Origin: a bacterium YEK0313
GTDB taxonomy: Bacteria; Pseudomonadota; Alphaproteobacteria; Rhizobiales; Phreatobacteraceae
Length of the DNA stretch: 32,000 nt
Direction: 5' to 3'
Assembly (NCBI GenBank): GCA_000751295.2
Contig: CCMO02000002.1
Span: 1,187,806 to 1,219,805 of the forward strand
The notes below the pieces were generated by a model. It was not told where the DNA came from. It saw only the letters and a list, made by a program, of their open reading frames with translations, and made no database searches. This document shows positions 1 through 23,321 of this stretch, piece after piece. Both the position numbers and the translations under genes were made by a program. Positions within the stretch are counted from its first letter, which is position 1. Each line of letters starts with the position of its first letter.

Positions 1-170
1 AGTTCCCGGGCATGGCGGATGAACGTCAGCCGCCGAATATCCTCTGCTCCATAGAGGCGTCGTCCACTGTCGGTCCGGGGCGCCGGGGGTATCAGCCTGA
101 TCCGTTCATAATAGCGGATCGTCTCGATATTGACGCCCGTGCGTTTGGACAAGGTTCCGATAGTGATCAT
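1..170 (-). CDS. MerR-family (CadR/PbrR/ZntR-like) metal-responsive transcriptional regulator, N-terminal part only (continues beyond window start)
   Basis: Reverse complement of 1-170 starts with ATG (168-170) and reads MITIGTLSKRTGVNIETIRYYERIRLIPPAPRTDSGRRLYGAEDIRRLTFIRHAREL. This is the canonical MerR winged-HTH N-terminus (ETIRYYE, RxY, RLxFI). It is absent from the ORF track because the window edge truncates it. It is divergent from the MerR-type promoter at 178-208. Confidence 0.85.
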   Translation of the reverse strand, partial: MITIGTLSKRTGVNIETIRYYERIRLIPPAPRTDSGRRLYGAEDIRRLTFIRHARE

Positions 171-177
171 CGCGGGG

Positions 178-208
178 TTGATTCTGTAGTGGCTACAGCA
201 TGTAGGTA
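178..208 (+). promoter_or_regulatory. MerR-type metal-responsive promoter/operator between the MerR gene and the ANL-enzyme operon
   Basis: TTGATT (178-183), a 19-bp spacer, then TAGGTA (203-208). The spacer holds a perfect dyad, CTGTAG-TGG-CTACAG (184-198). An over-long spacer carrying a dyad is the MerR-family hallmark. A near-identical copy lies at 6683-6713. Confidence 0.7.
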
Positions 209-228
209 TAGCGACTCGCTGGAGGTGT

Positions 229-1425
229 GTGAACCCGAGAACGATTATGACCGAGCATGTCGTAGGCCTGATCTGGGACGCCTGGCGAGCTAAGCGTCAG
301 GGGCGCGAGGCGCTCGCGGCTTGCCAGACGAGCCGCCTCGTCGACATGGTGGCCTATGCGCGGGCTCGCTCGCCCTTCTATGGTGAGCGCTATCACGATC
401 TCCCGGACCGCATTGAGGACCCGCGCCAATTGCCGGTTACCGACAAGAAGCTGCTCATGGAGCGCTTCGACGAATGGTGCACCGATCGCGCCGTCACGCT
501 CCAGGCTGCAGAAGCGCTCGTCGACGATCCCAGCCGGATCGGAGAGTGGTTCCTCGGAAAATATACCGTGATGACCACCTCCGGCACGACCGGCCGCCGC
601 GGCATCTTCGTGGTCGACGATCGCACGATGGCGGTCGTGACTGCAATGATGCTCCGCTGGGTTGGTGACTGGCTCAGTCCCAGTGACTATCTCAAGATCG
701 TCGCCCGCCGTGGGCGGATGGCGATGGTGATGGCGACCGGCGGCCATTTCGCGTCGGCTGTTGCCGCGGCGCGTCTGAAGAAGCGGCGCGGAAAACACGT
801 CGAGGTGCTTTCGGCGCACATGCCGATGACAGAGCTTGTGGCTCGCCTGAACCGTTTCCAGCCGGCGATACTTGCCCCTTATGCCAGCATGGCCGCTCTG
901 CTCGCCGACGAGCAGGAGGCCGGCCGGCTCGACATCCATTACCGCCCGGTCGCTCCAGGCGAGCAGTCGCACACGGTGCTGATCAGCAATCTCGCCAATC
1001 GTGTGCAGCCGATCCTGCGATACGATCTTGGCGACAGCGTGCTGCAGCGGCCCGATCCATGCCCCTGCTGCAATCCGTTGCCCGCGATCCGCGTCCAGGG
1101 CCGTTCCGCAGACGTCCTCACTTTTCGCGCTTCGACGGGCGAGGTCAGGCTTCCTCCGCTGGCGCTCACCCAGCGCATCGAGGCCGTTCGGGGCATCACG
1201 CTCTTTCAACTCGCGCAGACGGCGCCCGCGGCACTTGAGATGCATCTGCAACTCGCGCCGACGGCTAATGCAGAAACCGTCTGGCGCGAGGCCGAAGCAG
1301 GTTTGCGGAAGGTGCTTGCCGAGCACGGACTTGAACACGTCGTCGTTGAGCGCGGCGATCACCCTGGCGGCGCGGTCCTCGGCGGGAAGTTCCGAGAGGT
1401 CATTCCCCTGTCGACATCAGGCTGA
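229..1425 (+). CDS. PaaK (phenylacetate-CoA ligase) / coenzyme F390 synthetase-like adenylate-forming enzyme, short paralog missing the central core segment
   Basis: 398-aa ORF. It shares with the downstream paralog the P-loop-like MTTSGTTGRRGIF, PVTDKK, NLANRVQPILRYDLGD, CPCCNPLPAIRVQGRSADVL and C-terminal GGKFREVIPL. The track start at 229 is a GTG only 3 nt after GGAGG (221-225); ATG 247 is an alternative start. Confidence 0.75.
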   Translation: MNPRTIMTEHVVGLIWDAWRAKRQGREALAACQTSRLVDMVAYARARSPFYGERYHDLPDRIEDPRQLPVTDKKLLMERFDEWCTDRAVTLQAAEALVDDPSRIGEWFLGKYTVMTTSGTTGRRGIFVVDDRTMAVVTAMMLRWVGDWLSPSDYLKIVARRGRMAMVMATGGHFASAVAAARLKKRRGKHVEVLSAHMPMTELVARLNRFQPAILAPYASMAALLADEQEAGRLDIHYRPVAPGEQSHTVLISNLANRVQPILRYDLGDSVLQRPDPCPCCNPLPAIRVQGRSADVLTFRASTGEVRLPPLALTQRIEAVRGITLFQLAQTAPAALEMHLQLAPTANAETVWREAEAGLRKVLAEHGLEHVVVERGDHPGGAVLGGKFREVIPLSTSG

Positions 1426-1579
1426 ACAGGTCCGGCCGAACGCGAAAGAAGGTGGCGTGCGCTTCGGCGAGAAACAGCATCGGATCATTCTGTGGAGCGT
1501 GGCCGCCACCGCGGTTGCCATTGCCGTGGCCGGCGCAGGTCTTGGACGCGGTCTGGCCCGGGAAAGAAGGAGAAGGCTC

Positions 1580-2947
1580 GTGAGCCAGCGTCCCCTGTGG
1601 CTATCTGCTTCCCGAAATCCGGAGAAAGTGAAGGAGAGGCTTGCCGAGATCGTGGCCTTTGCCCGGGCCAACTCTCCCTACTACCGCGATCTGTACAAGA
1701 ATCTGCCCGCGAGGGTCGAGGACTCCCGCCTGCTGCCCGTCACCGACAAGAAGACGCTCATGGCGAACTTCGATCGTTGGGTGACGGATCGCGAGGTCAC
1801 GATTGAGCGCGTGCGTAAGTTTATCGAAGATCCGAGCCTCGTCGGCGAAATGCTCCTCGGGAAATATCTGGTCGCCACGACCGCCGGCACGACGGGCAAA
1901 CCGGGCATCTTCATATTGGATGACAATCACATGCGAGGCGGGACATCCGGCCTCCGAGAAGCGTTCAGAACCTGGCTGTCGCTCGGGGACGTTGTACGGA
2001 TTGTTCTGCGCGGAGCGCGATTTGCGGCCCTGCACGCCACCGGCGGTCATTTCGTTTCGGTTACGGGTTTCACTCGGGCGCGGCGCTCCAGCCGGGTTTT
2101 GGCGAAACTCACTCGCGATTTCTCGGTGCACGCGCCGATAAGGGAACTCGTCAACGGCCTCAATGAGTTCCGTCCAGCCGTTGTCCTTGGCTACGCCTCT
2201 ACCGCCTCTCTGCTGGCTCGCGAGCAGGAACTTGGACGGCTGCGCATCAAGCCGGTGTTGTTGGTGGTTACGGCCGAGGGCCTTGCGGAAGAAGAGTACG
2301 GGCGGATCGCCAAGGCGTTCGGCGCGAAGGTCCGCAACACATGGGGCTCAACCGAGATCGGTGGCCCGACCTACAGCTGCACCGAGGGATGGCTCCACGT
2401 CGTCGGCGACTGGATCATCCTCGAGCCGGTGGATGCCGATTTCCGCCCCGTTTCGCCGGGCGAGGAGTCGGACACGGTGCTGGTGACCAATCTCGCCAAT
2501 CGCGTGCAGCCGATCCTGCGTTACGATCTCGGCGACCGCATCCTGCAGAGGCCGGACCCTTGTCCCTGCGGCAATCCCCTGCCGGCGATCCGCGTCCAGG
2601 GTCGCTCCGCCGAGGTTCTCCGCTTTCCGACCCAAGCCGGCAAAGACGTCTCGATACCGCCGCTCGCGTTCGAGATCGACCACGTGCCGGGAGTCGATCT
2701 GTCGCAAGTCGTGCAGACTGCGCCGACCAACTTGCGCGTACGCCTGCGCCTCGAGTCTGGTGCGGATCCGGACCAAGTCTGGAGGACGGTGCACGGCGAA
2801 TTGAAGCATTTGCTCGACAGCCACGAACTCCACGAGGTGACGATCGAGCGCGCCGAGGAGCCGCCGGAACAGTCGAGGGGCGGCAAGGTCAGGCAGGTCA
2901 TTCCGCTGGCTCAAGCAGAACCGCCGGCCGATCGAAAACAAGACTGA
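1580..2947 (+). CDS. PaaK / F390 synthetase-like adenylate-forming enzyme (ANL superfamily), full-length paralog
   Basis: 455 aa from GTG 1580 (AAGGAG at 1567-1572, 7-nt spacer). Motifs: ATTAGTTGKPGIF, WGSTEIGG, CPCGNPLPAIRVQGRSAEVL, GGKVRQVIPL. In-frame GTG 1457 would add a hydrophobic N-terminal segment (ILWSVAATAVAIAVAGAGLG). The track ORF start at 1001 overlaps the upstream gene and is not credible. Confidence 0.8.
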   Translation: MSQRPLWLSASRNPEKVKERLAEIVAFARANSPYYRDLYKNLPARVEDSRLLPVTDKKTLMANFDRWVTDREVTIERVRKFIEDPSLVGEMLLGKYLVATTAGTTGKPGIFILDDNHMRGGTSGLREAFRTWLSLGDVVRIVLRGARFAALHATGGHFVSVTGFTRARRSSRVLAKLTRDFSVHAPIRELVNGLNEFRPAVVLGYASTASLLAREQELGRLRIKPVLLVVTAEGLAEEEYGRIAKAFGAKVRNTWGSTEIGGPTYSCTEGWLHVVGDWIILEPVDADFRPVSPGEESDTVLVTNLANRVQPILRYDLGDRILQRPDPCPCGNPLPAIRVQGRSAEVLRFPTQAGKDVSIPPLAFEIDHVPGVDLSQVVQTAPTNLRVRLRLESGADPDQVWRTVHGELKHLLDSHELHEVTIERAEEPPEQSRGGKVRQVIPLAQAEPPADRKQD

Positions 2948-2960
2948 AAGGAGCGTGGTC

Positions 2961-3152
2961 ATGAAGGAAGTCGCCAAGTTCCTCGCTGGATTTGCCGGAA
3001 ATCAGCTCCTGACGCATGGGGTTTTGGCGATCAGCGGCACCCGGTTCAGTGTCTTCGGGATCGATTACACCCCTAAATTGAACACGACCGCCGCGATCGT
3101 CTGGGGCGTGCTCATGCTGCTACTGATTTACTATGCCTGGGTCAGGAGATGA
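2961..3152 (+). CDS. Small (63 aa) membrane protein, no recognisable family
   Basis: ATG 2961 lies 7 nt after AGGAG (2949-2953) and 13 nt after the stop of the upstream gene. It has a C-terminal hydrophobic helix, AAIVWGVLMLLLIYYAWV. It contains no Cys and a single His, so it is not an obvious metal binder. Confidence 0.5.
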   Translation: MKEVAKFLAGFAGNQLLTHGVLAISGTRFSVFGIDYTPKLNTTAAIVWGVLMLLLIYYAWVRR

Positions 3153-3196
3153 CGAGCACGATTCAGTACACGTCCATAGAAAGCCGGACATGAAAC

Positions 3197-3823
3197 ATGC
3201 CAGGTGACGAAGAGACCGAGATACGCCTCGATGCCCGTAATGTCGACGAACGACGCACGCTGCGCTGGGTACTCGGGATTAACTTCACGCAGGTCTTGGT
3301 AGCCGGTGCCGTCGGCATCCTGGCGGATTCCACGGGCCTGCTCGGTGCCGCACTCGACAATCTGGGGGACGCCGCAGTTTATGCGGTCAGTCTCTATGCG
3401 GTCGGCCGCACGGTCATTACCAAGGCACGCGCCGCAAACCTGTCCGGCATTCTTCTGATCCTCCTTGCCTTCGGTTTGCTTGTAGAAGTCTTGCGTCGGT
3501 TTTTCGCGGGAGCCGAGCCGATCGGGCTCGCGATGATCATCACGGCGCTCGCGAACGCGGCTACCAATTTGCTCTGCCTTCGCCTTTTGCGAGCGCATCG
3601 TGCGCATGGTGTGCACTTCAAGGCGTCGTGGATTTTTACAACGAACGACATGCTGGCCAATGCGGGCATCGTCCTTTCCGGTCTCTTGGTGATGTTTCTG
3701 AAGTCTCCGGTCCCCGATCTCGTGATCGGGGTTCTGATCGTCGGAATCGTCCTCAAAGGAGGGTGGGAGATTCTCAAAGAGGCGCGTGAAGCCCGCGATT
3801 CTGCACAGGGAAACAGAGGATGA
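3197..3823 (+). CDS. Cation diffusion facilitator (CDF)-type cation efflux protein, membrane domain only
   Basis: 208 aa with six hydrophobic helices. It has a CDF-like TM2, ADSTGLLGAALDNLGDAAVY (DxxxD), and a TM5, SWIFTTNDMLANAGIV. The protein ends soon after TM6, so it has no cytoplasmic C-terminal domain. Confidence 0.8.
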   Translation: MPGDEETEIRLDARNVDERRTLRWVLGINFTQVLVAGAVGILADSTGLLGAALDNLGDAAVYAVSLYAVGRTVITKARAANLSGILLILLAFGLLVEVLRRFFAGAEPIGLAMIITALANAATNLLCLRLLRAHRAHGVHFKASWIFTTNDMLANAGIVLSGLLVMFLKSPVPDLVIGVLIVGIVLKGGWEILKEAREARDSAQGNRG

Positions 3824-3907
3824 CCAAACGTCTCCTGTGGACCCATAACCAGGCGTTTGCCTCCAGGAGGCCGGAAGATCTCGCCGAACGGGATTTGGAG
3901 AGCCGCA

Positions 3908-5155
3908 ATGCCCCGGATTCCACGTGACAGAAGTCTGGACTCGACGATCGCCCTGATGGGTGATCCCTATAGATTTATCTGGAATCGAAGTCGGCGCTAT
4001 CGATCGGACCTGTTTGAAACGCGGCTTCTGCTGCGGAAGACCATCTGTATGACGGGCCCGGAAGCGGCCCAGCTGTTCTACGATCCGAGCCGCTTCGTAC
4101 GCACCGGTGCGATGCCTAAGGCGATCCAGAAGACGTTGCTCGGCGTAGGTGGCGTGCAGGGCCTCGACGACGACGCCCACCGGCATCGCAAGCAAATGTT
4201 CATGTCGCTGATGACACCCGAGCGGATCGAGCAGCTCATCCAGCTGACCGCGGCCGAGTGGCAGATCCGAGTGCTCAAGTGGGGATCGATGGACGAGGTC
4301 GTGCTCTATTCAGAGCTCCACTTGCTTCTGACACGCGCGGCCTGTGCCTGGGCCGGTGTGCCGCTCGCGGATTCAGAGGTCGACGCGCGGACCAAGGAGA
4401 TTGCCGCGTTGTTCGACCATGCGGGTTCGGTCGGACTTAGACACCTGTGGTCGCGGTGGGCCCGAAAACGGGCTGATCGTTGGATGGCGGATATCATCGA
4501 TCAGATCCGCGGTGGCCGTATCCGGCCGCCCGAACAGTCGGCTGCCCACATCATTGCGTGGCATCGGGATCTCAATGGTGAGCTGCTCACGCCTCAGATC
4601 GCCGCTGTCGAACTGATCAATGTGATCAGGCCGACGGTTGCCGTCTCGGTTTACATGATTTTCGTCGCCCACGCATTGCACGCGCATCCCAAAATTCGAG
4701 AGAGGCTTCAGGCCGACGACGACAGCTACTCCCGCTGTTTCGTCCAGGAGGTTCGCCGGTACTATCCTTTTTTCCCGGCAGTCGCTGCGCGAACGCGGCA
4801 GGCATTCGATTGGAACGGATACCAATTCCCCGCAGGTCGACGCGTTCTCCTCGATCTATACGGCACCAACCAGGACCCCCGAACTTGGGAGAGACCGGAG
4901 GAGTTCGAGCCCGAGCGATTCCGCCGGTGGAACGAGAGCCCATTCAATTTCATCCCGCAGGGCGGCGGAGACCACTACGCTAATCATCGCTGTCCTGGCG
5001 AATGGATTGCAATCGAGCTCATGAAGCTGACTGCGGATTTCCTCACGCGCTCCATGAGCTACGAGGTGCCGCAGCAAGACCTGGGCATTGACTGGTCGCG
5101 GCTGCCCGCATTGCCGCGTAGCCGGTTCGTGATCAGCAACGTCGGGGAACGCTGA
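3908..5155 (+). CDS. CYP152-family cytochrome P450 fatty-acid peroxygenase (P450 BSbeta / SPalpha / OleT family)
   Basis: It aligns along its whole length, from memory, with P450 BSbeta: PRDRSLDST...DPYRFI, HRHRKQMFMSLMTPE, VELINVIRPTVAVS (the Arg-Pro carboxylate anchor), FVQEVRRYYPFFP, LLDLYGTNQDPRTW and the heme ligand HRCPGEW. ATG 3908 follows GGAGAG (3896-3901). The track start at 3857 adds 17 unsupported residues. Confidence 0.9.
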   Translation: MPRIPRDRSLDSTIALMGDPYRFIWNRSRRYRSDLFETRLLLRKTICMTGPEAAQLFYDPSRFVRTGAMPKAIQKTLLGVGGVQGLDDDAHRHRKQMFMSLMTPERIEQLIQLTAAEWQIRVLKWGSMDEVVLYSELHLLLTRAACAWAGVPLADSEVDARTKEIAALFDHAGSVGLRHLWSRWARKRADRWMADIIDQIRGGRIRPPEQSAAHIIAWHRDLNGELLTPQIAAVELINVIRPTVAVSVYMIFVAHALHAHPKIRERLQADDDSYSRCFVQEVRRYYPFFPAVAARTRQAFDWNGYQFPAGRRVLLDLYGTNQDPRTWERPEEFEPERFRRWNESPFNFIPQGGGDHYANHRCPGEWIAIELMKLTADFLTRSMSYEVPQQDLGIDWSRLPALPRSRFVISNVGER

Positions 5156-5229
5156 AATGTCCCTGCATATGCGCCGGCAAGCTGAAGCACCAAAGTCCTG
5201 GCAGTCAAGCGACGGCAAGGAGAACCCGA

Positions 5230-5799
5230 ATGAGTAAACCTCCGATACCGAAAGACCTGCCTGCCGAGCTGGCACGCGTCCGCCGTCAGGCTGCGCTGTC
5301 TTTCTTGTTTTGCGCGCCCGTTCTTGGGGCGGCCGTCTGGTGGCTGCCACAGCAGTTCAACTTTCCGGCAGAAGTGGGCGAGCGGCTGGCGTTCGCCGCG
5401 CGGTCGAGCCTGCTCATCATGCTTTGGGTCTTGATTGGGGTCGGAATCATTGCGAGGCTCCGGCGCAAGTCAGCGCACGACACTGCGGGCTCTGCCTACG
5501 GCCCGCCGAGCGAGCGGCTAAGAGTTCCGCTGGCGTTCCTGCAAAACACGCTTGAGCAGGCGACGCTGGCGGCCTTTGCCGTCATGGCGCTCGCCACGGT
5601 CGAGGGCGAGGCGCCGCTCGCTTTCATAGTGGGAATGGTCGTGCTGTTCGGGATCGGGCGAATCACCTTCTTTCGTGGCTATCCTCATGGTTCGCCTGGC
5701 AGGGCGTTCGGCGTGGTGACGACTGCGTTGCCGATCATGGGCGCGTTTGCCTGGGTGATCTTCGACATAGGCGAGAGGCTGATCCGCGGCGTCGCCTAG
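5230..5799 (+). CDS. MAPEG-family membrane protein (glutathione transferase / eicosanoid-metabolism-like fold)
   Basis: 189 aa with four hydrophobic helices and MAPEG-like motifs FLQNTLEQ and RITFFRGY. The RBS AAGGAG sits just upstream of ATG 5230. Confidence 0.65.
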   Translation: MSKPPIPKDLPAELARVRRQAALSFLFCAPVLGAAVWWLPQQFNFPAEVGERLAFAARSSLLIMLWVLIGVGIIARLRRKSAHDTAGSAYGPPSERLRVPLAFLQNTLEQATLAAFAVMALATVEGEAPLAFIVGMVVLFGIGRITFFRGYPHGSPGRAFGVVTTALPIMGAFAWVIFDIGERLIRGVA

Positions 5800-5816
5800 T
5801 CGCCCGGCGTCGTCCC

Positions 5817-6587
5817 ATGAGCGCTTCTCTCTACGAGCCGATCAGCATTTACAAGGCCGTCGCGGCGAACATCGGCATCGTCGATGGACCATTCGAATAT
5901 CTGACGGTCGGTGGCGCAAGGTTGCCGCTTCCGTTCACTACTCGAATGACAGTCGTGCGCCTCGCGAACGGCGACCTCTTCCTCCACTCGCCGACTAAGT
6001 TTGACGATCGTCTAGCGGCGGAGTTGCAACAGTTGGGAGCACCTCGCCATCTCGTATCGCCCAACCAGTTCCACTACGCGCACATCGGCGAGTGGCAGAA
6101 GGCGTTTCCCGACGCGATTGCATGGGCGTCCCCGCGAGTTCGTCAAAGGGCCGCAGCGCGCGGAATATCAATCAACTTTTCGAGAGACCTGGAGGCAGTT
6201 CCGCCGGGAGAATGGCGAGGGGAAATCGACCAGACGCTTTTCCCCGGCGGCTATTTCAAGGAATTCATTTTCTTCCACGAGGCGTCCAAGACGCTGATCC
6301 TCACCGATACGATCATCAACATCGAGTTGGACAAGATCGGAGAGCCCTGGCGGACGGTCACGCGGCTCACCGGTATGTACCACCCGTACGGTCAGATCTT
6401 CTTTGGCATGCGGCTTCCACTTCTCCTGCAGCGGAGAAAGAGGGACGCGGCGCTGGCCAAGATCCGCTCGTGGCAGCCGCATCGAATCATTCTCAGCCAC
6501 GGACGCTGCTTTGAGGCACATGGAGGCGAGGTTATTCGACGGATATTCGGCAGTGCAGGCGCCAGCGGATGGCGATCGAGCTCATAA
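5817..6587 (+). CDS. DUF4336 domain protein (uncharacterised, metallo-beta-lactamase-like fold)
   Basis: 256 aa. The blocks MTVVRLANGDLFLHSP, RHLVSPNQFHYAHIGEW, FPDAIAWASP and FIFFHEASKTLILTDTIINIE match my recollection of DUF4336 conserved blocks. The start is 17 nt after the MAPEG stop. Confidence 0.65.
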   Translation: MSASLYEPISIYKAVAANIGIVDGPFEYLTVGGARLPLPFTTRMTVVRLANGDLFLHSPTKFDDRLAAELQQLGAPRHLVSPNQFHYAHIGEWQKAFPDAIAWASPRVRQRAAARGISINFSRDLEAVPPGEWRGEIDQTLFPGGYFKEFIFFHEASKTLILTDTIINIELDKIGEPWRTVTRLTGMYHPYGQIFFGMRLPLLLQRRKRDAALAKIRSWQPHRIILSHGRCFEAHGGEVIRRIFGSAGASGWRSSS

Positions 6588-6682
6588 GGTCGCCGGATGT
6601 ATTACCTTGCTACTGTGACACCGGCTCTTGCAAGCCACAATTCTGGCCGCGAACAGCGCCGCTCTTCCGGCACAGGGCCCGC

Positions 6683-6713
6683 TTGATTCTGTAGCGGCTA
6701 CAGAATGTAGGAT
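6683..6713 (+). promoter_or_regulatory. Second MerR-type metal-responsive promoter/operator, upstream of the P1B ATPase
   Basis: TTGATT (6683-6688), a 19-bp spacer, then TAGGAT (6708-6713). The dyad TTCTGTAG-CGG-CTACAGAA (6687-6705) lies in the spacer. It is almost identical to the site at 178-208. Confidence 0.7.
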
Positions 6714-6750
6714 CCCTAGTCAAGCCAGCGAGAATGTTGGGCAGTCAAGC

Positions 6751-9700
6751 ATGAACGGACGGCGATTCGAAGGATACATGATGAAGGTTGACACCATGAG
6801 GAGCACTGCGCGCCCGCTCCGCTTCAAAGTCGCCGGCTTGGATTGCCAGAATGAAATCCGCGCGCTTCGTGGGGCGGTGGGACCAATCGTCGGAGGCGAC
6901 GACAAGCTGTCCTTCGACACCAAGGCGGGCCTGATGGAGGTAGCGGTCGGGGATCCTACCCTGGTTATTGAAATAACCCGGGCGGTTGATGCCACGGGAA
7001 TGCGAGCGGACCTTCTGCCAGAGCGAACGCCGCAGTCTACATCGGCGCTGCTTTTTCAGATCGACGGGCTCGACTACAAGAACGAAGTCGCCGTGCTCAA
7101 ACGTGAGATCGGTCCGCTTGTAGGGGGCGAGGATCGGCTGGCATTCGATACCGCGAGACGGTTGATGACGGTCGCGCCGCAAAGCCAAGCGACGATCCAA
7201 GACATCGTTCGAGCCGTTGCGCCGACCGGCATGCGTGCCTCGCTTGTTGGAGATGGCGTGGACGAGGCGGTGCTCTACCGTGTGCACGGACTCGACTGCA
7301 AGAACGAGGTGGCGGCCCTGACGCGGGAGCTGGCACCGCTCGTCGGAGAGGACAATCTCGCGTTTGACACAGAACGCGGCATGATGACGGTGGGGCCTCA
7401 GAAGCGGGTCGTCTCTGATGTGATCAAGGAGGCCGTGGCTCGAGCGGGTATGCGCGCGGAACCATGGGCGCCGGAAACCGTGTCGTCTGCTTTCGCCAAC
7501 CCCACCTCCCAGCAGGAAGACTTGGCCTGCGGCTGTGGCGCAGAGGTGCAGGAGGTCTTCAGTCCGCCGATCCCGACCCACTTACCCGGTCAGGTCGTGT
7601 TTCGCATTCATGGCATGGATTGCGCCGACGAGATCGCGGCCTTGAAGCGCGAGGTCGGTCCGCTCGTCGGGGAAGACAAGCTCGCCTTTGATCTCCTCAA
7701 CGGCCGCATGTCGATCGACGTGACACCGGATTCCGTGCTCGAAGCAAGTATCGAGAAGGCGGTGGCTCGCGCCGGCCTGCGCGCGGAGCCGTGGATCGAA
7801 GGCGGCATTAGCGACGCCGCACAGATCGAAGAGCGCCGGAAGCGGGTGCAGTCGTGGCTCACAACCGCAAGCGGCGTGCTCACCGCGCTGGGCTTCGCGG
7901 TCCACGCTTGGCTCGGGGGCGGCGTCATAGCCGCTTTCGAGGCAGGCGAACATGCCAGGGGCACAACCCCGTTGCCGAGCATGGTTCTCTACGCGGTCGC
8001 CGTGCTCTGTGCCGCGCGCTACGTCGCGCCCAAGGCTTGGCTCGCGGCCAAGCGACTTCGCCCCGACATGAATCTGCTGATGATGGTTGCGGTCGCGGGC
8101 GCGATCGGTATCGGCGCCTGGTTCGAGGCCGCCACCGTTTCGTTCTTTTTTGCATTGGCGCTGGCGCTCGAGGCCTGGAGTCTTGGTCGCGCGCGCCGCG
8201 CGGTTGCCGCCCTCATGGAACTCGCCCCGCCGACAGCGCGCGTCAAGCTCGAAGACGGCTCCGAGCGCGACGTGGCGGCGGCCGAGGTGCGAGTCGGCGC
8301 GAGGATCATAATCCGGCCGGGAGACAAGGTGCCGCTCGACGGCCGGGTCGTCGCTGGCGAGAGCGAGGTCAACCAGGCACCGATCACCGGTGAAAGCGTC
8401 CCCGTGTTCAAGGCGGAAGGGGACGACGTATTTGCCGGGACCATCAACGGTGAGGGCGCAATTGAGGTCGTGACCACCAAAGCGGCGAATGACACGACGC
8501 TCGCCCAGATCATCCGCATGGTCGGTTCGGCGCAGAGCCGGCGCGCACCCAGTGAGCAATGGGTTGAGAAGTTCGCACGTGTCTACACGCCGGTCGTAAT
8601 GGTACTCGCCATTGCGATTTTTCTCGCTCCGCCCTTGCTTATGGGCGGCGCTTGGGACGTCTGGTTCTATCGGGCTCTCGTACTCCTCGTGATCGCTTGC
8701 CCCTGCGCTCTCGTGATTTCGACCCCGGTGACGATCGTGGCGGCCCTGGCCGGCGCGGCAAAGCAGGGGGTCCTGGTCAAGGGCGGCACCTATCTCGAGA
8801 CGCCTGCGCACCTCAAGGCGATTGCCTTGGACAAGACGGGCACGCTCACCGAAGGACGGCCGCAGGTTGTCGAGATCGTGCCGCTTGGAGGTCGCAGCGA
8901 AACTGAGCTCCTCGGTCTGGCCGCGGCCCTGGAGGCGCGCAGCGGGCATCCGATCGCTCGCGCCATCCTGGCGAAAGCCGCCGAGCTGAAGATCGCCGCC
9001 GAGCCTGCCGAGGCTGTCCAAGCCATCACTGGCCGAGGCGTCATCGGGCGAGTGGCCGGCCGCGAAATGTGGCTCGGCTCGCGCCGCTACCTTGAGGAGC
9101 GCGGCGTCAATTCTGCTGAGGTTCTGCAGCGGGCGGATGCGCTTTCGAGCGCCGGTCGCACCATCGTTGCGGTCGGCGATGGTCAGGACGTCTGGGGGCT
9201 CGTTGCTGTCGCCGATGCTGTCAGGCCGGAGGCCAAGGACATTGTCACGGCGCTGCACCGCGCCGGGATCGAACACGTTGTGATGCTCACCGGAGACAAT
9301 CGCGCGACAGCCGAGGCGATTGCGAAGCAGACAGGCATCGACGAGGTCCAGGCAGAACTGCTGCCGGGCGACAAGGTGGCGGCGGTCGAGGATTTGGTGC
9401 GGCGCTACGGATCGGTGGCGATGGTCGGCGACGGAGTCAATGACGCTCCCGCGATGGGGCGTGCCAATCTCGGCATCGCCATGGGTGCCATGGGCAGCGA
9501 CGCCGCCATTGAAACGGCCGATGTTGCGCTCATGTCGGACGATCTGTCGAAACTTCCTTGGCTTGTGCGCCATTCGCGGGCGACGCTCGCCGTCATCCGA
9601 CAGAACGTTGCCTTCTCGATCGCCGTGAAGTTCTTGTTCACAGGGCTGACAGTGATTGGTCTCGCATCGCTCTGGGGTGCTATCGCAGCGGACGTCGGCG

Positions 9701-9843
9701 CGTCTCTGCTGGTCGTTCTCAATGGCCTGCGCCTGCTCAATCGTGGTCAGACCAGCGGTCAAAAGGGTGGCCCATCCAGCGGTCTTGGCGTTTCGACGCA
9801 GCAGCGTCGTGCCCCGACCATCGCCGAAACGGTCCCGGCGTAG
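6751..9843 (+). CDS. Heavy-metal translocating P1B-2-type ATPase (Zn/Cd/Pb class; ZntA/CadA/PbrA-like) with four N-terminal HMA-like domains
   Basis: Motifs: PITGESVP (TGES), ACPCALVISTP (CPC), DKTGTLT, SGHPIA, GDGVNDAPA. A Lys in SIAVK and ADVGASLLVVLN (DxGx7N) give the P1B-2 transmembrane signature. The start is uncertain: in-frame ATGs lie at 6751, 6778, 6781 and 6796. The track start at 6628 lies upstream of the promoter, so it is rejected. Confidence 0.95.
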   Translation: MNGRRFEGYMMKVDTMRSTARPLRFKVAGLDCQNEIRALRGAVGPIVGGDDKLSFDTKAGLMEVAVGDPTLVIEITRAVDATGMRADLLPERTPQSTSALLFQIDGLDYKNEVAVLKREIGPLVGGEDRLAFDTARRLMTVAPQSQATIQDIVRAVAPTGMRASLVGDGVDEAVLYRVHGLDCKNEVAALTRELAPLVGEDNLAFDTERGMMTVGPQKRVVSDVIKEAVARAGMRAEPWAPETVSSAFANPTSQQEDLACGCGAEVQEVFSPPIPTHLPGQVVFRIHGMDCADEIAALKREVGPLVGEDKLAFDLLNGRMSIDVTPDSVLEASIEKAVARAGLRAEPWIEGGISDAAQIEERRKRVQSWLTTASGVLTALGFAVHAWLGGGVIAAFEAGEHARGTTPLPSMVLYAVAVLCAARYVAPKAWLAAKRLRPDMNLLMMVAVAGAIGIGAWFEAATVSFFFALALALEAWSLGRARRAVAALMELAPPTARVKLEDGSERDVAAAEVRVGARIIIRPGDKVPLDGRVVAGESEVNQAPITGESVPVFKAEGDDVFAGTINGEGAIEVVTTKAANDTTLAQIIRMVGSAQSRRAPSEQWVEKFARVYTPVVMVLAIAIFLAPPLLMGGAWDVWFYRALVLLVIACPCALVISTPVTIVAALAGAAKQGVLVKGGTYLETPAHLKAIALDKTGTLTEGRPQVVEIVPLGGRSETELLGLAAALEARSGHPIARAILAKAAELKIAAEPAEAVQAITGRGVIGRVAGREMWLGSRRYLEERGVNSAEVLQRADALSSAGRTIVAVGDGQDVWGLVAVADAVRPEAKDIVTALHRAGIEHVVMLTGDNRATAEAIAKQTGIDEVQAELLPGDKVAAVEDLVRRYGSVAMVGDGVNDAPAMGRANLGIAMGAMGSDAAIETADVALMSDDLSKLPWLVRHSRATLAVIRQNVAFSIAVKFLFTGLTVIGLASLWGAIAADVGASLLVVLNGLRLLNRGQTSGQKGGPSSGLGVSTQQRRAPTIAETVPA
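6817..7794 (+). repeat. Four tandem HMA-like domain repeats inside the ATPase N-terminus (protein-level repeat)
   Basis: Repeat units lie at nt 6817-7017, 7048-7248, 7270-7467 and 7594-7794. Each has the pattern (F/Y)x(V/I)xG(L/M)D(C/Y)xxE(I/V)xxL...GPLVG(G)ED(K/R/N)L(A/S)FD...GMRA. A CGCG motif at 7528-7539 sits in the linker before repeat 4. Confidence 0.8.
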
Positions 9844-9916
9844 ATCGAGGTTGCGTCAGCGCAACCCAACCCAAGCACACCGGTCGCGGAGAATGGCCGA
9901 AAAAGAAAGGACTTGA

Positions 9917-10447
9917 TTGAGCGTGGCGTATCCGAGGCTGATCCGACGAGCTACATTGGCATGTGGTGCTTTAGCTGCCGCCCTTGCGGTCGATTTTGTT
10001 ACGAAATGGCTGATCCTCAACGTCGTAATGGTGCCGCCGCGGACGATCGAGATCGCGCCATTTTTCAACCTGACCCTCGGTTTCAATACGGGTGTCAGTT
10101 TCGGAATGTTCCGTGAGCTCTTCCTCGATCGCCCATTGATGCTCGCCGGAATCAAGATGTTGATCGTCGCCGGCCTTCTCCTCTGGGCCATGAGAACGCC
10201 AAAGCCATTGGAGACGGTTGGTCTCGGCCTGATCGCCGGCGGTGCGATGGGCAATATTGTGGACCGGATAAGTCAAGGTGCCGTGACCGATTTCCTCGAT
10301 TTCCATGTCGGAAGATGGCACTGGCCGGCCTTCAACATGGCGGACACGATGATAACGATCGGCGTCGTCTTGCTGATCGCCGGCTCCTTTTGGCCGGTGA
10401 GGTCGATGACTCCCGTTCAGAAGCGGCCGAGCGCCGCGGAGCACTGA
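9917..10447 (+). CDS. lspA: Lipoprotein signal peptidase (signal peptidase II)
   Basis: 176 aa with four TM helices. LspA blocks are present: FNLTLGFNTGVSFG, GGAMGNIVDR, VTDFLDF and the catalytic-Asp block WPAFNMADTMITIG. The start is TTG 9917, with GTG 9923 as an alternative. Confidence 0.9.
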   Translation: MSVAYPRLIRRATLACGALAAALAVDFVTKWLILNVVMVPPRTIEIAPFFNLTLGFNTGVSFGMFRELFLDRPLMLAGIKMLIVAGLLLWAMRTPKPLETVGLGLIAGGAMGNIVDRISQGAVTDFLDFHVGRWHWPAFNMADTMITIGVVLLIAGSFWPVRSMTPVQKRPSAAEH

Positions 10448-10472
10448 CGATGGCGCTCATCAATGTTTTTTT
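10429..10472 (+). terminator. Weak candidate intrinsic terminator after lspA
   Basis: GAGCGCC (10429-10435) pairs with GGCGCTC (10452-10458), followed by a run of seven T (10466-10472). A T run is conspicuous in this GC-rich DNA. However, the loop is long (16 nt) and the stem is 7 nt away from the T run. Confidence 0.25.
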
Positions 10473-10557
10473 GCTCTCACCCTGCGGGCTGCCGCTCGTT
10501 CGGGCTACCTATCCTACGGCTTGTGCATACGGAGCAACTCGCCCGTTGGCCCTCGTA

Positions 10558-10757
10558 ATGCATGATCAGCAAGCCAAGAAGCGCGCACTACTGTTCTTGA
10601 ATCGGCGAAGCGGCAACGGTGGTGATCGCGCGCCGGATGCCGCTGTCCAGCAACTTGAGGCCGGCGGATTGTTTTGATGCGCGGGTCATGCATTCAAGCA
10701 GAAGATGTCACCCGCGAGATCAAACGCCATGCGCACGTGGTGTGGCACTCCGGCTGA
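10558..10757 (+). pseudogene. Decayed N-terminal fragment of a diacylglycerol-kinase-family (YegS-like) lipid kinase
   Basis: ATG 10558 reads MHDQQAKKRALLFLNRRSGNGGDRAPDAAVQQLEAGGLF then a stop (10675-10677). The +2 frame continues MRGSCIQAEDVTREIKRHAHVVWHSG then a stop (10755-10757). The KRALLxxNxxSGxG...L(E/x)AGG pattern is the start of DAGK-type lipid kinases. The fragment is frameshifted and truncated before the GGDGT motif. Confidence 0.4.
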
Positions 10758-11008
10758 TATACGTCCATTTCGGACGAAATATATGCAAACGCGTTGCAAT
10801 AGCATCTTAACATGAACTGACTACAGTCCTGTCAACAGTGCTGCCGATCCGAGTCGGGCTGCGCCTAGGAACCACGAAAATCCCAGCGCGCAGTTCCCAT
10901 ATTGGTTGAGGCGGTTGCCGCTTGGCCGGGGCATGCATTCCGGGAGTGCCACGGCTGCAGTTCACCGGAATCACAGAGGAGTTCCGGCCGCTGGAGGCGC
11001 AAATTGAG

Positions 11009-11908: not shown

Positions 11909-12123
11909 CGCTGCCGTCGCGCCTTCGCAAAGCCCCGATCGGTCGCCATGAAACGCTCGACCATGGGCACGATCAGCTTGGCCGGATCGGCTGCCGGATG
12001 TCCCGTTTCCCGAGCCAGGATCTCGGCATAAGCGACCAAATCCCGATGCACGGCGGCAGGAAGCTCGATCGTCAGCTTGACCGGCTTGTCGTCTGCGATG
12101 GCTCCCAGCTTCAGCTTCGCCAT
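11881..12123 (-). CDS. DUF2274 domain protein (conserved gene downstream of trbI in this ICE family)
   Basis: The 80-aa MAKLKLGAIADDKPVKLTIELPAAVHRDLVAYAEILARETG... matches the DUF2274 pattern I recall. ATG 12123 lies next to the trbI stop (12125-12127). Confidence 0.8.
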   Translation of the reverse strand: MAKLKLGAIADDKPVKLTIELPAAVHRDLVAYAEILARETGHPAADPAKLIVPMVERFMATDRGFAKARRQRQSPAGSAG

Positions 12124-12124
12124 A

Positions 12125-13339
12125 TCAGCCTCCGTAGGGCTCGAGGACGAGGTCGCGGGTGACGATGACGCGAACCGGAAAGCCGGGCCGGATGGTCAGC
12201 GTCGGCGCGACGTTCAACTGGCGGCGGACGATCTGCTGGCCGGCGTCGTTGATCGTGTCCTGACCGCCATTGCGGATAGCCTGGATCAGCCGATCGTCGT
12301 CGTTGGTGGCAAGCTCGGCGCCGATGCTCAGCAGCGTGGAAAGACCCGCCGCCTTGGCGAGATCCCACCAGTGATAGTCGACACCGTCCTGGAGACCGGC
12401 ATAGCCCTCGGCGTCAGCGCCGAGCTGGCGCTCGAGGACGATCGAGCGGCCATTGGGGAAGATCAGGCGGTTCCAGACCAGCAGCACGCGGCTCTGGCCG
12501 AACTGAACATTGTTGTCGTACTGGCCGATGATGCGCGTGCCTTGGGGTACGAGCAGGATGCGCCCCGTCGGGCTGTCATAGATATTCTCCGTCACCTGCG
12601 CGGTGATCTGGCCCGGAAGGTCGGATCGGATGCCGGTGATCAGCGCGGCAGAGATGACGGCGCCGGCTTGCAGAATGTTGGGCGATGCCGGCGCCGCTAT
12701 GCGGTCTGGCGCGACGGTGCGCCGATCGGCAGCGGCGTTGAGGAAGGCGAGCTGCCGATCCTGCGCGGATGGCGTGGCGGGCTGCGGAGCCAGGCCCAGA
12801 CTCGCCAGGTCAGGTGTGGGCTGCGGCGCAACCGCCGCCGAGCCGGGGCTCGGCGATGACATCGGGCGATTTTCCGTGCCGGCGAAGAGCCTGGCTGTGC
12901 GCGCGGCCTCGATCTCCTGCAGCCGTCGCTGCTCCTCGGCGCTGAGGCTGGGATTGGGTGCCGCGACGCCAGGGGGCACGGGCTGTCCGCGGTTCTGCGC
13001 GCCAAGGATCGGCCGCCCAAGATCGCCGGGTAGTGGCGGACCGAGCTGGGGAATGCCGCTGTAGTCGCGCGGTAACCCCGCGAGACCGTCGGCGGTCGAG
13101 CGGTTCTCGGTCGAATAGAGTTCCTCAGCGGGCCTGCCCCCGTCGCGGGTCTGGAGCGCGTAGATCAACGCACCGCCCAATCCCACGCTTGCGACGAGAC
13201 CGATGCCGGCGAGCGCCTTGCGCGAGAGCCGCGTGACACGCGGCGGTTCGGCGCGGAGCCGCATCGGGGCGGCCGCGTCGGCGGCTGCTCCGGTCAGCGG
13301 CGCGTCTTCTTCTTTTTGTTCGCTTGCGGGCTCGCTCAC
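12125..13339 (-). CDS. trbI: Conjugal transfer protein TrbI (VirB10 homolog)
   Basis: GTG 13339 overlaps the trbG stop (a GTGA overlap). Features: an N-terminal TM helix (LAGIGLVASVGLGGALIY), a Pro-rich linker and a conserved C-terminal VirB10 domain (GAVISAALITGIRSDLPGQITAQV...LLVWNRLIFPNG...PTLTIRPGFPVRVIV). The longer track ORF (to 13591) runs through trbG. Confidence 0.9.
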   Translation of the reverse strand: MSEPASEQKEEDAPLTGAAADAAAPMRLRAEPPRVTRLSRKALAGIGLVASVGLGGALIYALQTRDGGRPAEELYSTENRSTADGLAGLPRDYSGIPQLGPPLPGDLGRPILGAQNRGQPVPPGVAAPNPSLSAEEQRRLQEIEAARTARLFAGTENRPMSSPSPGSAAVAPQPTPDLASLGLAPQPATPSAQDRQLAFLNAAADRRTVAPDRIAAPASPNILQAGAVISAALITGIRSDLPGQITAQVTENIYDSPTGRILLVPQGTRIIGQYDNNVQFGQSRVLLVWNRLIFPNGRSIVLERQLGADAEGYAGLQDGVDYHWWDLAKAAGLSTLLSIGAELATNDDDRLIQAIRNGGQDTINDAGQQIVRRQLNVAPTLTIRPGFPVRVIVTRDLVLEPYGG

Positions 13340-14361
13340 GACGTCGGCCTCCCATCGGTGCGGGTGATCCGGACGCGCTTCTGGCGGTCGCCAGCGCCGA
13401 AGCGCAGTTCGGCGGCCGCAAACAGACGGTCGACGACCATGTAGTTGCCACGGACTCGGTAGTTGACCAGTTCGGAGGTGTTGCCTTCGGGTCCGACCAC
13501 GAACAGGGGTGGCATCTCGCCCTGGCCGATGCCGCGCGGGAATTCGATGAACACCTGCCGTCCGTCGTCGTAGGCGCGGAGCGGCCGCCACGGCGCGCGA
13601 TCGCCCTCGATCGCATAGCGGAAGTTGATGTTGGCGAGGTCGACACCGGTCGCGACCGGGCGTGCGGCTTCGGCCTGCGCGTTCTGCCGCCGAAGCGCGA
13701 TGAGCTGGTCCTGCGGATATTGCCAGGAAACCGAGGCCATATAGGTGCGCTCGGTCGAGCGCAGCTCCATGTGATAGGTGCGCAGGTTCGTGTTGATGAC
13801 GAGGTTGGTCATCAGATCGGACCGCGTCGGCTTCACCAGGATGTGGACCTGCGTGCTTGTCCCGGAGCCGCTTTGCGTGTCGCCGATGATCCAGCGGACG
13901 GTATCGCCGGCTGCGACCGGACCGGAGCCGACGAGCTGCTCGCCTGGCTGCAGGGCGATGTCGGTGATCTGACCGACGGCGGTATAGACCTGATAGAGTG
14001 CGCCGGCCGTGAAGGGATAGACTTGCATGGCGTTGATGAAGCCGTCCCGAACGGGCTGGACCCGAGCGGCGGCGTTGGCCTGGTTGACGCGGGCGGCCGG
14101 GTCGGTGGGCTCGGGCGTGCGATGCGACGGCTCGACAGGCTTCATCTGTCCGGGTAGCGGCAAGGGGCGCGGCAGCTCGACGACCTGCACCGGCGCCGGC
14201 GGATCGGCCTGGAGCGTTGCCGGCGCGGCATCGTCGTAGGAGATTTCAGGGGGTCTCTGCGTCGTGGCGCAGCCCGCCAAGGCGCTCGCTGAAATCAGCA
14301 AAGCCGCAAATGTGGAAGTGCGAGAAGCCGGATTTCCGGCTTTACGGAAAGACGGCTTCAT
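13336..14361 (-). CDS. trbG: P-type conjugative transfer protein TrbG (VirB9 homolog), lipoprotein
   Basis: 341 aa. The signal peptide has a lipobox, SALAGC. VirB9/TrbG blocks are present (QVYPFTAGALYQVYT, VRWIIGDT, NLRTYHMEL, VNYRVRGNYMVVDRLF). ATG 14361 overlaps the trbF stop. Confidence 0.95.
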   Translation of the reverse strand: MKPSFRKAGNPASRTSTFAALLISASALAGCATTQRPPEISYDDAAPATLQADPPAPVQVVELPRPLPLPGQMKPVEPSHRTPEPTDPAARVNQANAAARVQPVRDGFINAMQVYPFTAGALYQVYTAVGQITDIALQPGEQLVGSGPVAAGDTVRWIIGDTQSGSGTSTQVHILVKPTRSDLMTNLVINTNLRTYHMELRSTERTYMASVSWQYPQDQLIALRRQNAQAEAARPVATGVDLANINFRYAIEGDRAPWRPLRAYDDGRQVFIEFPRGIGQGEMPPLFVVGPEGNTSELVNYRVRGNYMVVDRLFAAAELRFGAGDRQKRVRITRTDGRPTS

Positions 14362-16363: not shown

Positions 16364-16367
16364 GTTG

Positions 16368-16736
16368 CTATTGCTCTTCCTCAGGCACGGGCGCGCTTTC
16401 CTTGCGGAGCGGATCGCCTGCGGGGTCCTCAATGGATGTGTCGGGCGCGGCCAGTGGATCGGGAACACGCTCCGCCGGCCGCACACCGGAGGTGAGGAAC
16501 CGCTCGCGACTCTCGGCCCAGGCGCGCAGACAGGCCGGGTCGCGAGGCCCGGCCTCGCCGAGACCCTGGCAACGGGTCAGCTCGGCGCGAAGCGGATCGG
16601 CGGGCGTTACCCCCACAGGCTCGCTGGCCCGGCTGGACGGCTCGTCCTCCTTCCGGGTCATCTCGATCGCGGTCGCGGTGACGGCGAACGCGACGAACAC
16701 CACGGCGCCGACGCGGGCCAGCAGCTTTCCGTCCAT
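16368..16736 (-). CDS. trbK: Putative entry-exclusion protein TrbK-alt
   Basis: 122 aa. The N-terminus MDGKLLARVGAVVFVAFAVTATAIEMTRKE, and the position between trbJ and trbL, match the TrbK-alt family as I recall it. Confidence 0.7.
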   Translation of the reverse strand: MDGKLLARVGAVVFVAFAVTATAIEMTRKEDEPSSRASEPVGVTPADPLRAELTRCQGLGEAGPRDPACLRAWAESRERFLTSGVRPAERVPDPLAAPDTSIEDPAGDPLRKESAPVPEEEQ

Positions 16737-23314: not shown

Positions 23315-23321
23315 GGCCGCC

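Follow-up and report, generated by a model that had tools for sequence, protein, structure and literature searches.

A probable recently inactivated allele of a PaaK-like ligase, with an in-frame 189-nt deletion, in a metal-resistance island

The first of two adjacent PaaK-like adenylate-forming (ANL) ligase genes in the window (the whole 32,000-nt stretch of DNA that was analysed) lacks 63 codons of its catalytic core. Compared with its intact orthologues this is a disabling lesion of the kind that defines a pseudogene, and no relative carries it. We consider it likely that this gene, hereafter copy 1, is a PaaK-like adenylate-forming ligase allele that was inactivated recently, which in practice makes it a young pseudogene with a reading frame that is still open. 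Its neighbour, copy 2, is intact.

Results

Copy 1 has lost a single internal segment

The features that define the lesion are:

247-1425, + strand: copy 1, PaaK-like ANL gene with an in-frame deletion; 392 aa, start ATG 247
937-942, + strand: deletion junction CAT/TAC (His231/Tyr232); 189 nt, or 63 codons, gone between 939 and 940
1580-2947, + strand: copy 2, intact PaaK-like ANL gene; 455 aa, GTG start, all core motifs
2252-2440, + strand: copy 2 counterpart of the lost 63 codons (PVLLVV...EPVDAD), with the A5 motif WGSTE at 2342-2356

The orthologues of copy 1 open with MTEHV, matching the start at ATG 247, and over aligned columns copy 1 is 90% identical to an orthologue of 459 aa (P0004). 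BLASTP of the copy 1 and copy 2 ORFs gave E = 1e-113 and 44% identity over 429 columns, with a single large gap. MAFFT alignments of DNA and protein placed this gap between His231 (CAT, 937-939) and Tyr232 (TAC, 940-942), and the missing piece measured exactly 189 nt in 11 of 11 orthologous genes; it corresponds to codons 232-294 in full-length numbering. The sequence flanking the junction is copy 1-type on either side, and a near-repeat, CCGG(C)TCGAC, ends 6 nt before each deletion endpoint. The junction peptide of the short protein reads ...GRLDIHYRPVAPGEQ... The preliminary description of this DNA had proposed a clean in-frame loss of about 63 codons, and the count proved to be exactly 63 against copy 2 and every orthologue examined. 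It had given the absent segment as 2249-2440 of copy 2; this is correct for 2252-2440, but the first codon is aligned in copy 1 (K against H).

The near-identity of 987-1036 and 2488-2537, also pointed out earlier, was confirmed (46 of 50 positions identical). Gene conversion between the paralogues was rejected as its source, since copy 1-type genes from genomes without copy 2 match copy 2 equally well there (44-47 of 50). The similarity thus reflects constraint on an invariant NLANRVQPILRYDLGD motif.

The deletion removes the A5 motif and disrupts the predicted fold

Several further features of copy 1 bear on its catalytic motifs:

574-603, + strand: A3 P-loop TTSGTTGRRG, kept in copy 1 (by alignment; motif definition from PMC8388817)
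1069-1071, + strand: TGC (Cys) replacing the Gly of PCPCGNP, which is Gly in at least 97% of homologues
1357-1380, + strand: 24-nt patch encoding DHPGGAVL instead of G/E-E/K-PPEQGR, unique to copy 1 and directly preceding the A10 lysine
1387-1389, + strand: A10 catalytic lysine codon (GGKFREV), kept in copy 1 (by alignment)

As originally described, copy 1 keeps its P-loop (TTAGTTGKPG in copy 2), its C-terminal lid and an intact frame, open through 1425; A7 (RYDLGD), the A8 hinge (QGRSADV) and A10 (GGKFREV) are all retained. The patterns sought were (S/T)(S/T/G)G(S/T)TGxPK-like for the A3 P-loop, an (S/T)GD type for A7 and Px4GK for A10. The A5 motif, aromatic-(G/W)-x-(A/T)-E, is missing. This motif is WGSTE in copy 2 and takes the variant form YAASE in the orthologues of copy 1. 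Mutating A5, which binds Mg2+ and positions ATP, cuts activity 50- to 100-fold (PMC8388817). From the N-terminal core the deletion takes away, A5 included, a strand-helix-strand unit and four more strands (by another count one helix and five strands, six elements in all).

We modelled the full-length and short forms with AF2, using one 61-row sequence set aligned once per protein as query. The full-length orthologue gave a predicted model with the two-domain ANL fold and the PaaK-type N-terminal microdomain (pLDDT 86.5, pTM 0.86), in which the part deleted from copy 1 scored 88-97. The short form reached only pLDDT 72.3 and pTM 0.64: its N-terminal helices remained at 82-92, while the model broke down after residue 232, around the A7 and A8 motifs, with residues 233-288 (about 55 after the junction) below 50. 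Foldseek searches against PaaK-family structures gave E = 5e-23 and TM 0.55-0.64 for the orthologue, and E = 4e-7 and TM 0.33 for the short form. Since what remains of copy 1 is predicted to be unfolded around A7 and A8, it should not adenylate. The same expectation had been voiced for any copy without the A5 block, and the reported role of A5, the absent core elements and the collapse of the model all support it.

Two other departures, the Gly-to-Cys change and the 24-nt patch, had escaped the preliminary description. The PPEQGR region replaced by the patch is conserved at the nucleotide level in the 11 orthologues and in copy 2. A small inversion or a compensated frameshift does not account for the patch, as its reverse complement aligned no better than shuffled sequences (1165 of 2000 scored as well), and a search of the rest of the genome found no donor. 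Copy 1 violates 3 of the columns conserved at 97% or more (median 1, maximum 7) and is no outlier in this respect.

Copy 2 starts at GTG 1580

1426-1579, + strand: non-coding intergenic spacer, with the Shine-Dalgarno sequence AAGGAG at 1567-1572

Copy 2 had been suggested to start at GTG 1457 and to carry an N-terminal membrane anchor. Comparison with the syntenic metagenome contig L001 overturned this idea. The L001 orthologue, 95% identical to copy 2 with a dN/dS of 0.21, is called at 455 aa from the position of GTG 1580; similarity between the two loci begins only at the Shine-Dalgarno sequence, the L001 spacer being unrelated and 377 nt long, and the upstream frame in L001 encodes nothing alike. 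With its start at GTG 1580 rather than 1457, copy 2 has no membrane anchor.

The short form is confined to a single genome

The short protein (P0003) formed a one-member cluster from one contig. None of 113 full-length homologues has a gap of more than 10 residues in the deleted region, and 53 of 53 relatives on genome contigs span about 1350 nt. The short form was absent among 5.8 billion protein clusters, and two metagenome scans found the junction in no contig. Among the best 150 representatives the short architecture was likewise missing, apart from independent deletions that are differently placed. A conserved short subfamily was therefore rejected: of the remaining short relatives, P0039 and P0046 are truncated at the N terminus, P0047 and P0045 are frameshifted, and P0136, P0148 and P0223 have deletions elsewhere in the gene. 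The homologue alignment that had been proposed as a check for such a subfamily came out negative, with all close and distant relatives full length. In the literature we found nothing relevant on ANL pseudoenzymes or on ligases of this type within metal or MerR islands.

The ligase pair is cargo of a metal-resistance island

The two ligases are flanked by the following features:

1-170, - strand: 5' part of a divergent MerR-family regulator gene, of which the N-terminal 56 residues lie in the window (Pfam MerR / MerR_1, E = 3e-16)
178-208, + strand: putative MerR-type operator-promoter (TTGATT, a 19-nt spacer with the dyad CTGTAG-N3-CTACAG, then TAGGTA)
2961-3152, + strand: conserved small hydrophobic protein, 63 aa, following copy 2 in the operon; 97% identity in L001, with counterparts in L020, L023 and L029
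3197-3823, + strand: short CDF (Cation_efflux) transporter, following the small protein in the operon

The same regulator gene is found upstream of copy 1 in L001, L004, L020 and L021. The operator pattern occurs at 178-198 and again at 6683-6703, with 0 occurrences expected by chance, and the predicted promoter would drive copy 1 as the first gene. In L001 the order is the same as in the window: MerR, full-length copy 1, copy 2, the small ORF, CDF, P450, MAPEG, DUF4336 and an ATPase. A Trb-type integrative conjugative element, foreign to its host genome, carries the gene pair as part of its metal-resistance cargo, along with MerR, CDF, a P-type ATPase and signal peptidase II. The GC content of this cargo is 62.1%, against 68.3% for the genome; the ligase pair was not found in the 20 genomes of the same genus that were searched, and the genome holds no other copy 1-type gene. 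In a plasmid collection the only near-identical DNA was one 106-nt match to window positions 182-287 (query 12-117), taking in the promoter region and the opening codons of copy 1.

Either ligase can be lost

Copy 1-type genes are mostly solitary. Among 49 loci with a downstream flank, about 45 carry no copy 2 beside them, so the two genes do not obligately co-occur, and the tandem pair is seen in four only (the window, L001, L020 and L023). In L029 a copy 1-type gene sits directly 5' of the small ORF, CDF and P450, and L001 retains a 20-codon 5' remnant of MAPEG between its two ligases. Chelativorans intermedius (L020) shows the reverse of the window: its copy 1 is intact, and its copy 2 carries a +1 frameshift, a -1 frameshift and a TGG-to-TAG change in A5. 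The tandem pairs, with loss of either copy, fit a history in which redundancy led to reciprocal loss.

In a distant homologue (L073 compared with L074) an independent event removed 71 codons of the same region, between direct repeats. One copy of this 71-codon-deleted lineage has since been frameshifted, and there was no ANL gene among the 11 genes called in its 11.6-kb locus.

Substitution patterns in copy 1

We computed dN/dS pairwise and polarised by outgroup, with and without the 24-nt patch. Along the window branch, 27 synonymous and 25 non-synonymous changes fall in copy 1 (23 and 17 without the patch). The resulting dN/dS, which does not separate the post-deletion period because no relative has the deletion, is about 0.3 and no higher than that of the intact copy 2 on the same branch (5 and 4 changes) or that of the L001 branch. 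This ratio had been put forward as a check on copy 1; it shows neither neutrality nor selection after the deletion, and fits a very recent deletion as well as continued constraint. Neither a frameshift nor a stop codon has arisen in copy 1 after the deletion. Measured gene by gene against L001, dS varies between 0 and 0.215, which indicates that the island is a recombination mosaic in which branch lengths are not comparable between genes; the protein tree has a terminal branch of 0.078 leading to copy 1 and one of 0.005 leading to copy 2, but synonymous changes scale alike.

Relationship to known ligases

We compared the window ligases with PaaK1/PaaK2 of Burkholderia cenocepacia (2Y27, 2Y4N, 2Y4O), BT_0428 (4R1L/4RVN), AjiA1 (6WUQ), NatL2 (6SIW/6TM4), ClxA (9S3L) and HCL (6HDW). 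Like these PaaK-family ANL enzymes, copy 2 and the full-length orthologue of copy 1 are about 455 aa long and have an N-terminal helical microdomain, P-loop, A5, A7 YDLGD, CxCG, A8 hinge and A10 GK; phmmer matched AjiA1 at E = 3e-15 and NatL2 at 4.5e-12. In contrast, identity is only 16-23%, scores fall far under the curated cut-offs of every named subfamily, and the setting is a MerR-controlled metal-resistance island rather than aromatic catabolism or benzoxazole biosynthesis. Copy 1 differs further in being without A5 and its surroundings. The top-scoring named family for both copies was TIGR02304, 'F390 synthetase-related protein' (an NCBIfam equivalog; E = 2e-24 and 2e-23), but the matches are partial and their scores, 86 and 83 bits, stay below the cut-off of 251.9, so that neither copy belongs to this family. 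TIGR02155 (PaaK) scored 20 bits against a cut-off of 646. PF00501 did not match copy 1 and gave 16.1 bits for copy 2, below its cut-off of 29.9.

Discussion

Copy 1-type ligases are as a rule single genes behind a putative MerR promoter. In our model copy 2, about 50% identical, joined copy 1 in a few variants of the island, bringing along the genes for the small protein, CDF and P450, probably through recombination between two such variants. With two ligases present, one would have become dispensable, assuming redundancy at this level of identity. A single 189-nt deletion would then have removed codons 232-294 of copy 1; the short imperfect direct repeat just before the endpoints suggests slippage or illegitimate recombination. 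The intact copy 2 presumably carries the function. By chance, one deletion in three leaves the frame open. The truncated protein is probably still made, given that its gene comes first behind a promoter predicted to be metal-inducible.

Among known systems, copy 1 resembles the young in-frame-deletion pseudogenes of redundant paralogues on mobile elements: the lesion is lineage-specific, the orthologues and the neighbouring paralogue are intact, the DNA is accessory and horizontally acquired, and a sister locus shows reciprocal loss. It departs from them in having no stop or frameshift and no measurable rise in dN/dS. Copy 1 also resembles pseudoenzymes, which are catalytically dead paralogues that persist as partners or regulators: it has lost a catalytic motif, keeps an open frame and lies beside a live paralogue. 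Pseudoenzymes, however, are defined by a dead form that is conserved across lineages, and the dead form of copy 1 is a singleton.

The preliminary description had preferred this second likeness, seeing in copy 1 a retained non-catalytic partner of copy 2 rather than a dying pseudogene. Such a pseudoenzyme, expressed from the MerR promoter, would dimerise with copy 2 or regulate it, pairing by way of the N-terminal microdomain with which PaaK-family enzymes form dimers. The open frame, the retained P-loop, N-terminal helices and C-terminal lid, the predicted first place in an inducible operon and a branch dN/dS of about 0.3 rather than 1 would all agree with it; PaaK-type ligases are obligate dimers through their N-terminal domain (PMC8388817), and nearly the same segment was lost in a second lineage. 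We nevertheless regard it as unlikely. A short form seen in one genome leaves retention undemonstrated, the L001 copy 1 is intact, copy 1-type ligases have no partner in most islands, and in C. intermedius it is the other paralogue that is broken. In the second short lineage, where one copy is frameshifted, none of the 11 genes called over 11.6 kb is an ANL gene. AF2 loses the conserved A7/A8 region, the conserved residues before the A10 lysine are scrambled, and the low dN/dS is explained if the deletion postdates most of the branch. A particular version seems to us quite improbable. In it the truncated protein, expressed under MerR control and still equipped with its P-loop and dimerisation microdomain, would join copy 2 in dead heterodimers and so tune the metal-induced ligase or inhibit it in a dominant-negative manner.

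That the short gene still encodes an active enzyme on a smaller core, such as one of altered substrate or chemistry, would be suggested by the remaining P-loop, A7 YDLGD, A8 hinge and A10 lysine. With A5 and six core secondary-structure elements gone, model confidence collapsing, an architecture common to no relative, and the deleted part missing from none of the ANL enzymes examined, solved or predicted, this is extremely improbable. An error of assembly or sequencing that hides a gene of full length is also very unlikely. Near-identical stretches of the paralogues could confuse an assembler, but collapsed repeats yield chimeras rather than internal in-frame deletions, and here the flanks on either side of the junction are of the copy 1 type and form no chimera with copy 2. 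A unique gene has cleanly lost 189 nt from its interior, in a near-complete assembly of 5 contigs with 100% completeness.

In annotation, what is now entered as an ordinary protein of 392 aa merits a flag as a probably inactive deletion allele, and the start of copy 2 belongs at GTG 1580. If the dead-heterodimer reading were true, the independent loss of nearly the same segment would make what is left a stable module that can be reused. As to the role of a PaaK-like ligase behind a MerR promoter in Pb/Zn/Cd-type islands, the deletion adds only a hint that one ligase suffices. On our preferred reading of copy 1 as a young pseudogene, the locus would be a small, clean case of reciprocal ligase decay after metal-island variants merged, affecting copy 1 here and copy 2 in Chelativorans intermedius.

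Copy 1 has lost a segment holding a core motif

Two adjoining PaaK-like ANL genes, of which copy 1 is the short one, lie near the start of the window in the following setting.

1-170, minus strand: 5' end of a MerR-family gene (Pfam MerR, E = 3e-16)
178-198: MerR-type operator-promoter, TTGATT followed by a 19-nt spacer with the dyad CTGTAG-N3-CTACAG
247-1425, same strand as copy 2: copy 1, 392 aa (its orthologues start MTEHV at ATG 247)
Within the long ORF ending at 2947, same strand as copy 1: copy 2
Within 12000-25400, minus strand: conjugation module genes for TrbI, CagX/TrbG, VirB8/TrbF, TrbL, TrbE, a VirB3-like protein, TrbB and TraG

The operator-promoter has a twin at 6683-6703, and chance alone would give no occurrence of the pattern. 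One of these MerR-type operators (TTGATTCTGTAG-N3-CTACAG) stands ahead of the ligase operon and the other ahead of the P-type ATPase gene.

The two ligases match each other with a single large gap (BLASTP, E = 1e-113). Each belongs to the ANL superfamily and is PaaK-like, but scores well under every curated subfamily threshold: TIGR02304 gives 86 and 83 bits for the two copies (cut-off 251.9), and Pfam AMP-binding matches copy 2 alone, at 16 bits. In alignments of both DNA and protein, the gap in copy 1 falls between CAT 937-939 and TAC 940-942, codons whose equivalents are separated by exactly 189 nt in 11 orthologous genes. The copy 2 counterpart of the missing part (2252-2440) holds the A5 motif WGSTE (2342-2356), which confirms the in-frame loss of a core motif reported in the preliminary description. 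Since the sequence on both sides of the junction is of copy 1 type, the gene is not a chimera of the two copies. Slippage or illegitimate recombination is a plausible origin, because a near-repeat, CCGG(C)TCGAC, lies 6 nt before each endpoint and microhomology at the junction itself is 2 nt at most.

Copy 1 carries further changes. Cys at 1069-1071 replaces the nearly invariant Gly of PCPCG, and at 1357-1380 a 24-nt patch peculiar to this gene disrupts the conserved PPEQGR that immediately precedes the lysine of the A10 core motif. Only 9 of the 24 patch positions agree with a consensus that 11 orthologues keep and that even copy 2 follows, with flanks about 91% identical. An inversion was ruled out for this patch, and a search across the genome found no donor.

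The intact tandem arrangement and its origin

A syntenic metagenome contig, L001, has the gene order of the window (MerR, copy 1, copy 2, a 63-aa protein, CDF, P450, MAPEG, DUF4336 and P-type ATPase), with common genes 91-99% identical and copy 1 at full length (459 aa). This contig also bears on the start of copy 2. Similarity to the window begins only at the Shine-Dalgarno sequence AAGGAG (1567-1572), 7 nt before GTG 1580; the remaining spacer is unrelated (154 nt in the window versus 377 nt in L001), the upstream L001 frame is not hydrophobic, and the orthologue is called as 455 aa from the GTG equivalent to 1580. The membrane anchor once proposed from GTG 1457 is therefore not supported.

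Genes of copy 1 type are usually found alone; among loci with downstream flank, copy 2 adjoins only in the window, L001, L020 and L023. MAPEG directly follows copy 1 in L002, L003 and L021, and the small ORF, CDF and P450 directly follow a copy 1-type gene in L029. Twenty codons left over from the 5' end of MAPEG (L001:5585-5644, 85% identical) lie between the ligases of L001, in the place taken by the unrelated 154 nt in the window. This remnant suggests that a copy 2-small ORF-CDF-P450 block inserted at the MAPEG start of an island once ordered copy 1-MAPEG. Together with the arrangements in L002, L003, L021 and L029, it makes the tandem look like a merger of two island variants with one ligase each.

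A protein tree unites copy 1 of the window with its counterparts in L001 and L020 at 99% support. L020 (Chelativorans intermedius LMG 28482, NZ_JAODNW010000022.1) is reciprocal to the window: copy 1 is intact and the adjoining copy 2 (5535-6866) is a pseudogene, in which one base is inserted at the AEG|L codons (+1), another is lost 147 codons further on (-1), and the Trp codon of NTWGSTE in A5 reads TAG instead of TGG. Of the four tandem loci, two thus have a disabled paralogue, copy 1 in the window and copy 2 in L020, as redundancy would predict.

The metal cargo (1-11000) has a GC content of 62.1%, versus 68.3% for the genome, and adjoins a minus-strand Trb-type conjugation module (trbI-G-F-L-E-B plus traG of a conjugative element). 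The replicon is 1.24 Mb long, and the window is close to its end. This genome has no further gene of copy 1 type, and a search of 20 genomes of the same genus did not turn up the ligase pair. Synonymous divergence (dS) from L001 is 0.17 for merR, 0.21 for copy 1, 0.11 for copy 2, 0.02 for the small ORF, 0.215 for CDF, 0.08 for P450, 0.00 for MAPEG and 0.016 for DUF4336. As neighbouring genes range from 0 to 0.215, recombination has made the island a fine-scale mosaic.

Predicted structure of the shortened protein

We modelled the full-length orthologue and short copy 1 with AlphaFold2, using the same 61-row homologue set. The orthologue reached pLDDT 86.5 and pTM 0.86, and its deleted part comprises a strand (234-238), a helix (244-254), the strand holding A5 (257-264) and further strands (267-273, 279-281 and 286-291), every element at pLDDT 88-97. 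Short copy 1 reached pLDDT 72.3 and pTM 0.64; residues 233-288, below 50, take in the greater part of the stretch that the family conserves best, NLANRVQPILRYDLGD...QGR, with motifs A7 and A8. Foldseek matched the orthologue to PDB structures at E = 5e-23 and TM 0.55-0.64 (PaaK1/2, BT_0428, AjiA1, NatL2), and short copy 1 only at E = 4e-7 and TM 0.33.

Separately, residues ~300-375 of the copy 1 model (the ANL C-terminal lid) weakly match CDF cytoplasmic C-terminal domains (MamM, ZnT1/3/7; E = 0.02-0.1, probability 0.7-0.97, target TM ~0.4-0.46 over ~70 residues), and NCBIfam gives a marginal CDF match at residues 314-374 (E = 0.1). The neighbouring CDF (3197-3823, 208 aa) matches the membrane part of the family profile only. 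The likeness may be a generic alpha/beta resemblance.

Decay or a retained partner

The short form is not a family. In a search of 5.8 billion protein clusters, the copy 1 product forms a one-member, one-contig cluster; its nearest relatives (455-460 aa, 82-90% identical over aligned columns) retain the segment, and none of 113 full-length homologues has a gap of more than 10 residues there. All matches covering the region in 53 named-genome loci (Chelativorans, Stappia, Reyranella, Xanthobacter, Phenylobacterium, Afipia, Myxococcota and others) span the full ~1350 nt, and two degenerate scans of metagenome contigs gave no match to the junction. In an exhaustive phmmer search of 1.84 billion representatives, the best 150 hits are mostly proteins of ~440-535 aa whose matches fall into two segments, interrupted at query residue ~231; those few that are short owe this to truncation, a frameshift or a deletion located elsewhere.

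The exception is a distant PaaK-like homologue (35-37% identical), whose three sequences form a single 90% cluster. An independent in-frame deletion flanked by the direct repeats CA(A)GCCCTC(G/T)GCAA has cost it 71 codons (213 nt) from almost the same part of the core. We compared L073:4429-5580 with the closest relative, which is full-length and syntenic (L074:3671-5071; 466 aa, 92% identical, 93% at the nucleotide level). The L073 copy (protein P0253) has an extra -1 frameshift. None of the 11 genes called in the 11.6-kb locus of this homologue is an ANL gene. Given the close full-length relative and the later frameshift on one contig, this too is a lineage-specific loss heading for decay.

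We consider it likely that a recent in-frame deletion knocked out one ligase gene of a redundant pair carried as cargo by a mobile metal-resistance element. The preliminary description had instead suggested that short copy 1 is a retained non-catalytic partner or regulatory subunit of copy 2. PaaK-family enzymes dimerise via their N-terminal domain, which makes that role mechanistically possible, but no comparative evidence backs it, and we consider it improbable. An assembly artefact is very unlikely. That copy 1 is a still-active minimal enzyme is hardly credible; according to a review (PMC8388817), A5 serves to position ATP and to bind Mg2+, and activity falls 100-fold when its Thr is mutated and 50-fold when its Glu is.

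In pairwise comparison with L001, dN/dS comes to 0.28 for copy 1 (0.22 upstream of the junction and 0.36 downstream of it) and to 0.21 for copy 2; the rest of the operon gives 0.05 to 0.15, aside from two genes with too few changes for an estimate, the 65-codon small ORF (0.64, on 3 changes) and MAPEG (a single change). On the outgroup-polarised window branch, copy 1 shows 27 synonymous changes against 25 non-synonymous ones (23 and 17 without the patch), and copy 2 shows 5 against 4, the same ratio in a different amount. Neither the pairwise nor the polarised dN/dS suggested that copy 1 is drifting neutrally. The result is compatible with either a deletion recent relative to a branch of dS ~0.1-0.2 or continued constraint, and since dN/dS does not separate the two, it lowers our confidence in decay. 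On the reading that we favour, a recent inactivating deletion, copy 1 would be a case of ordinary gene decay.
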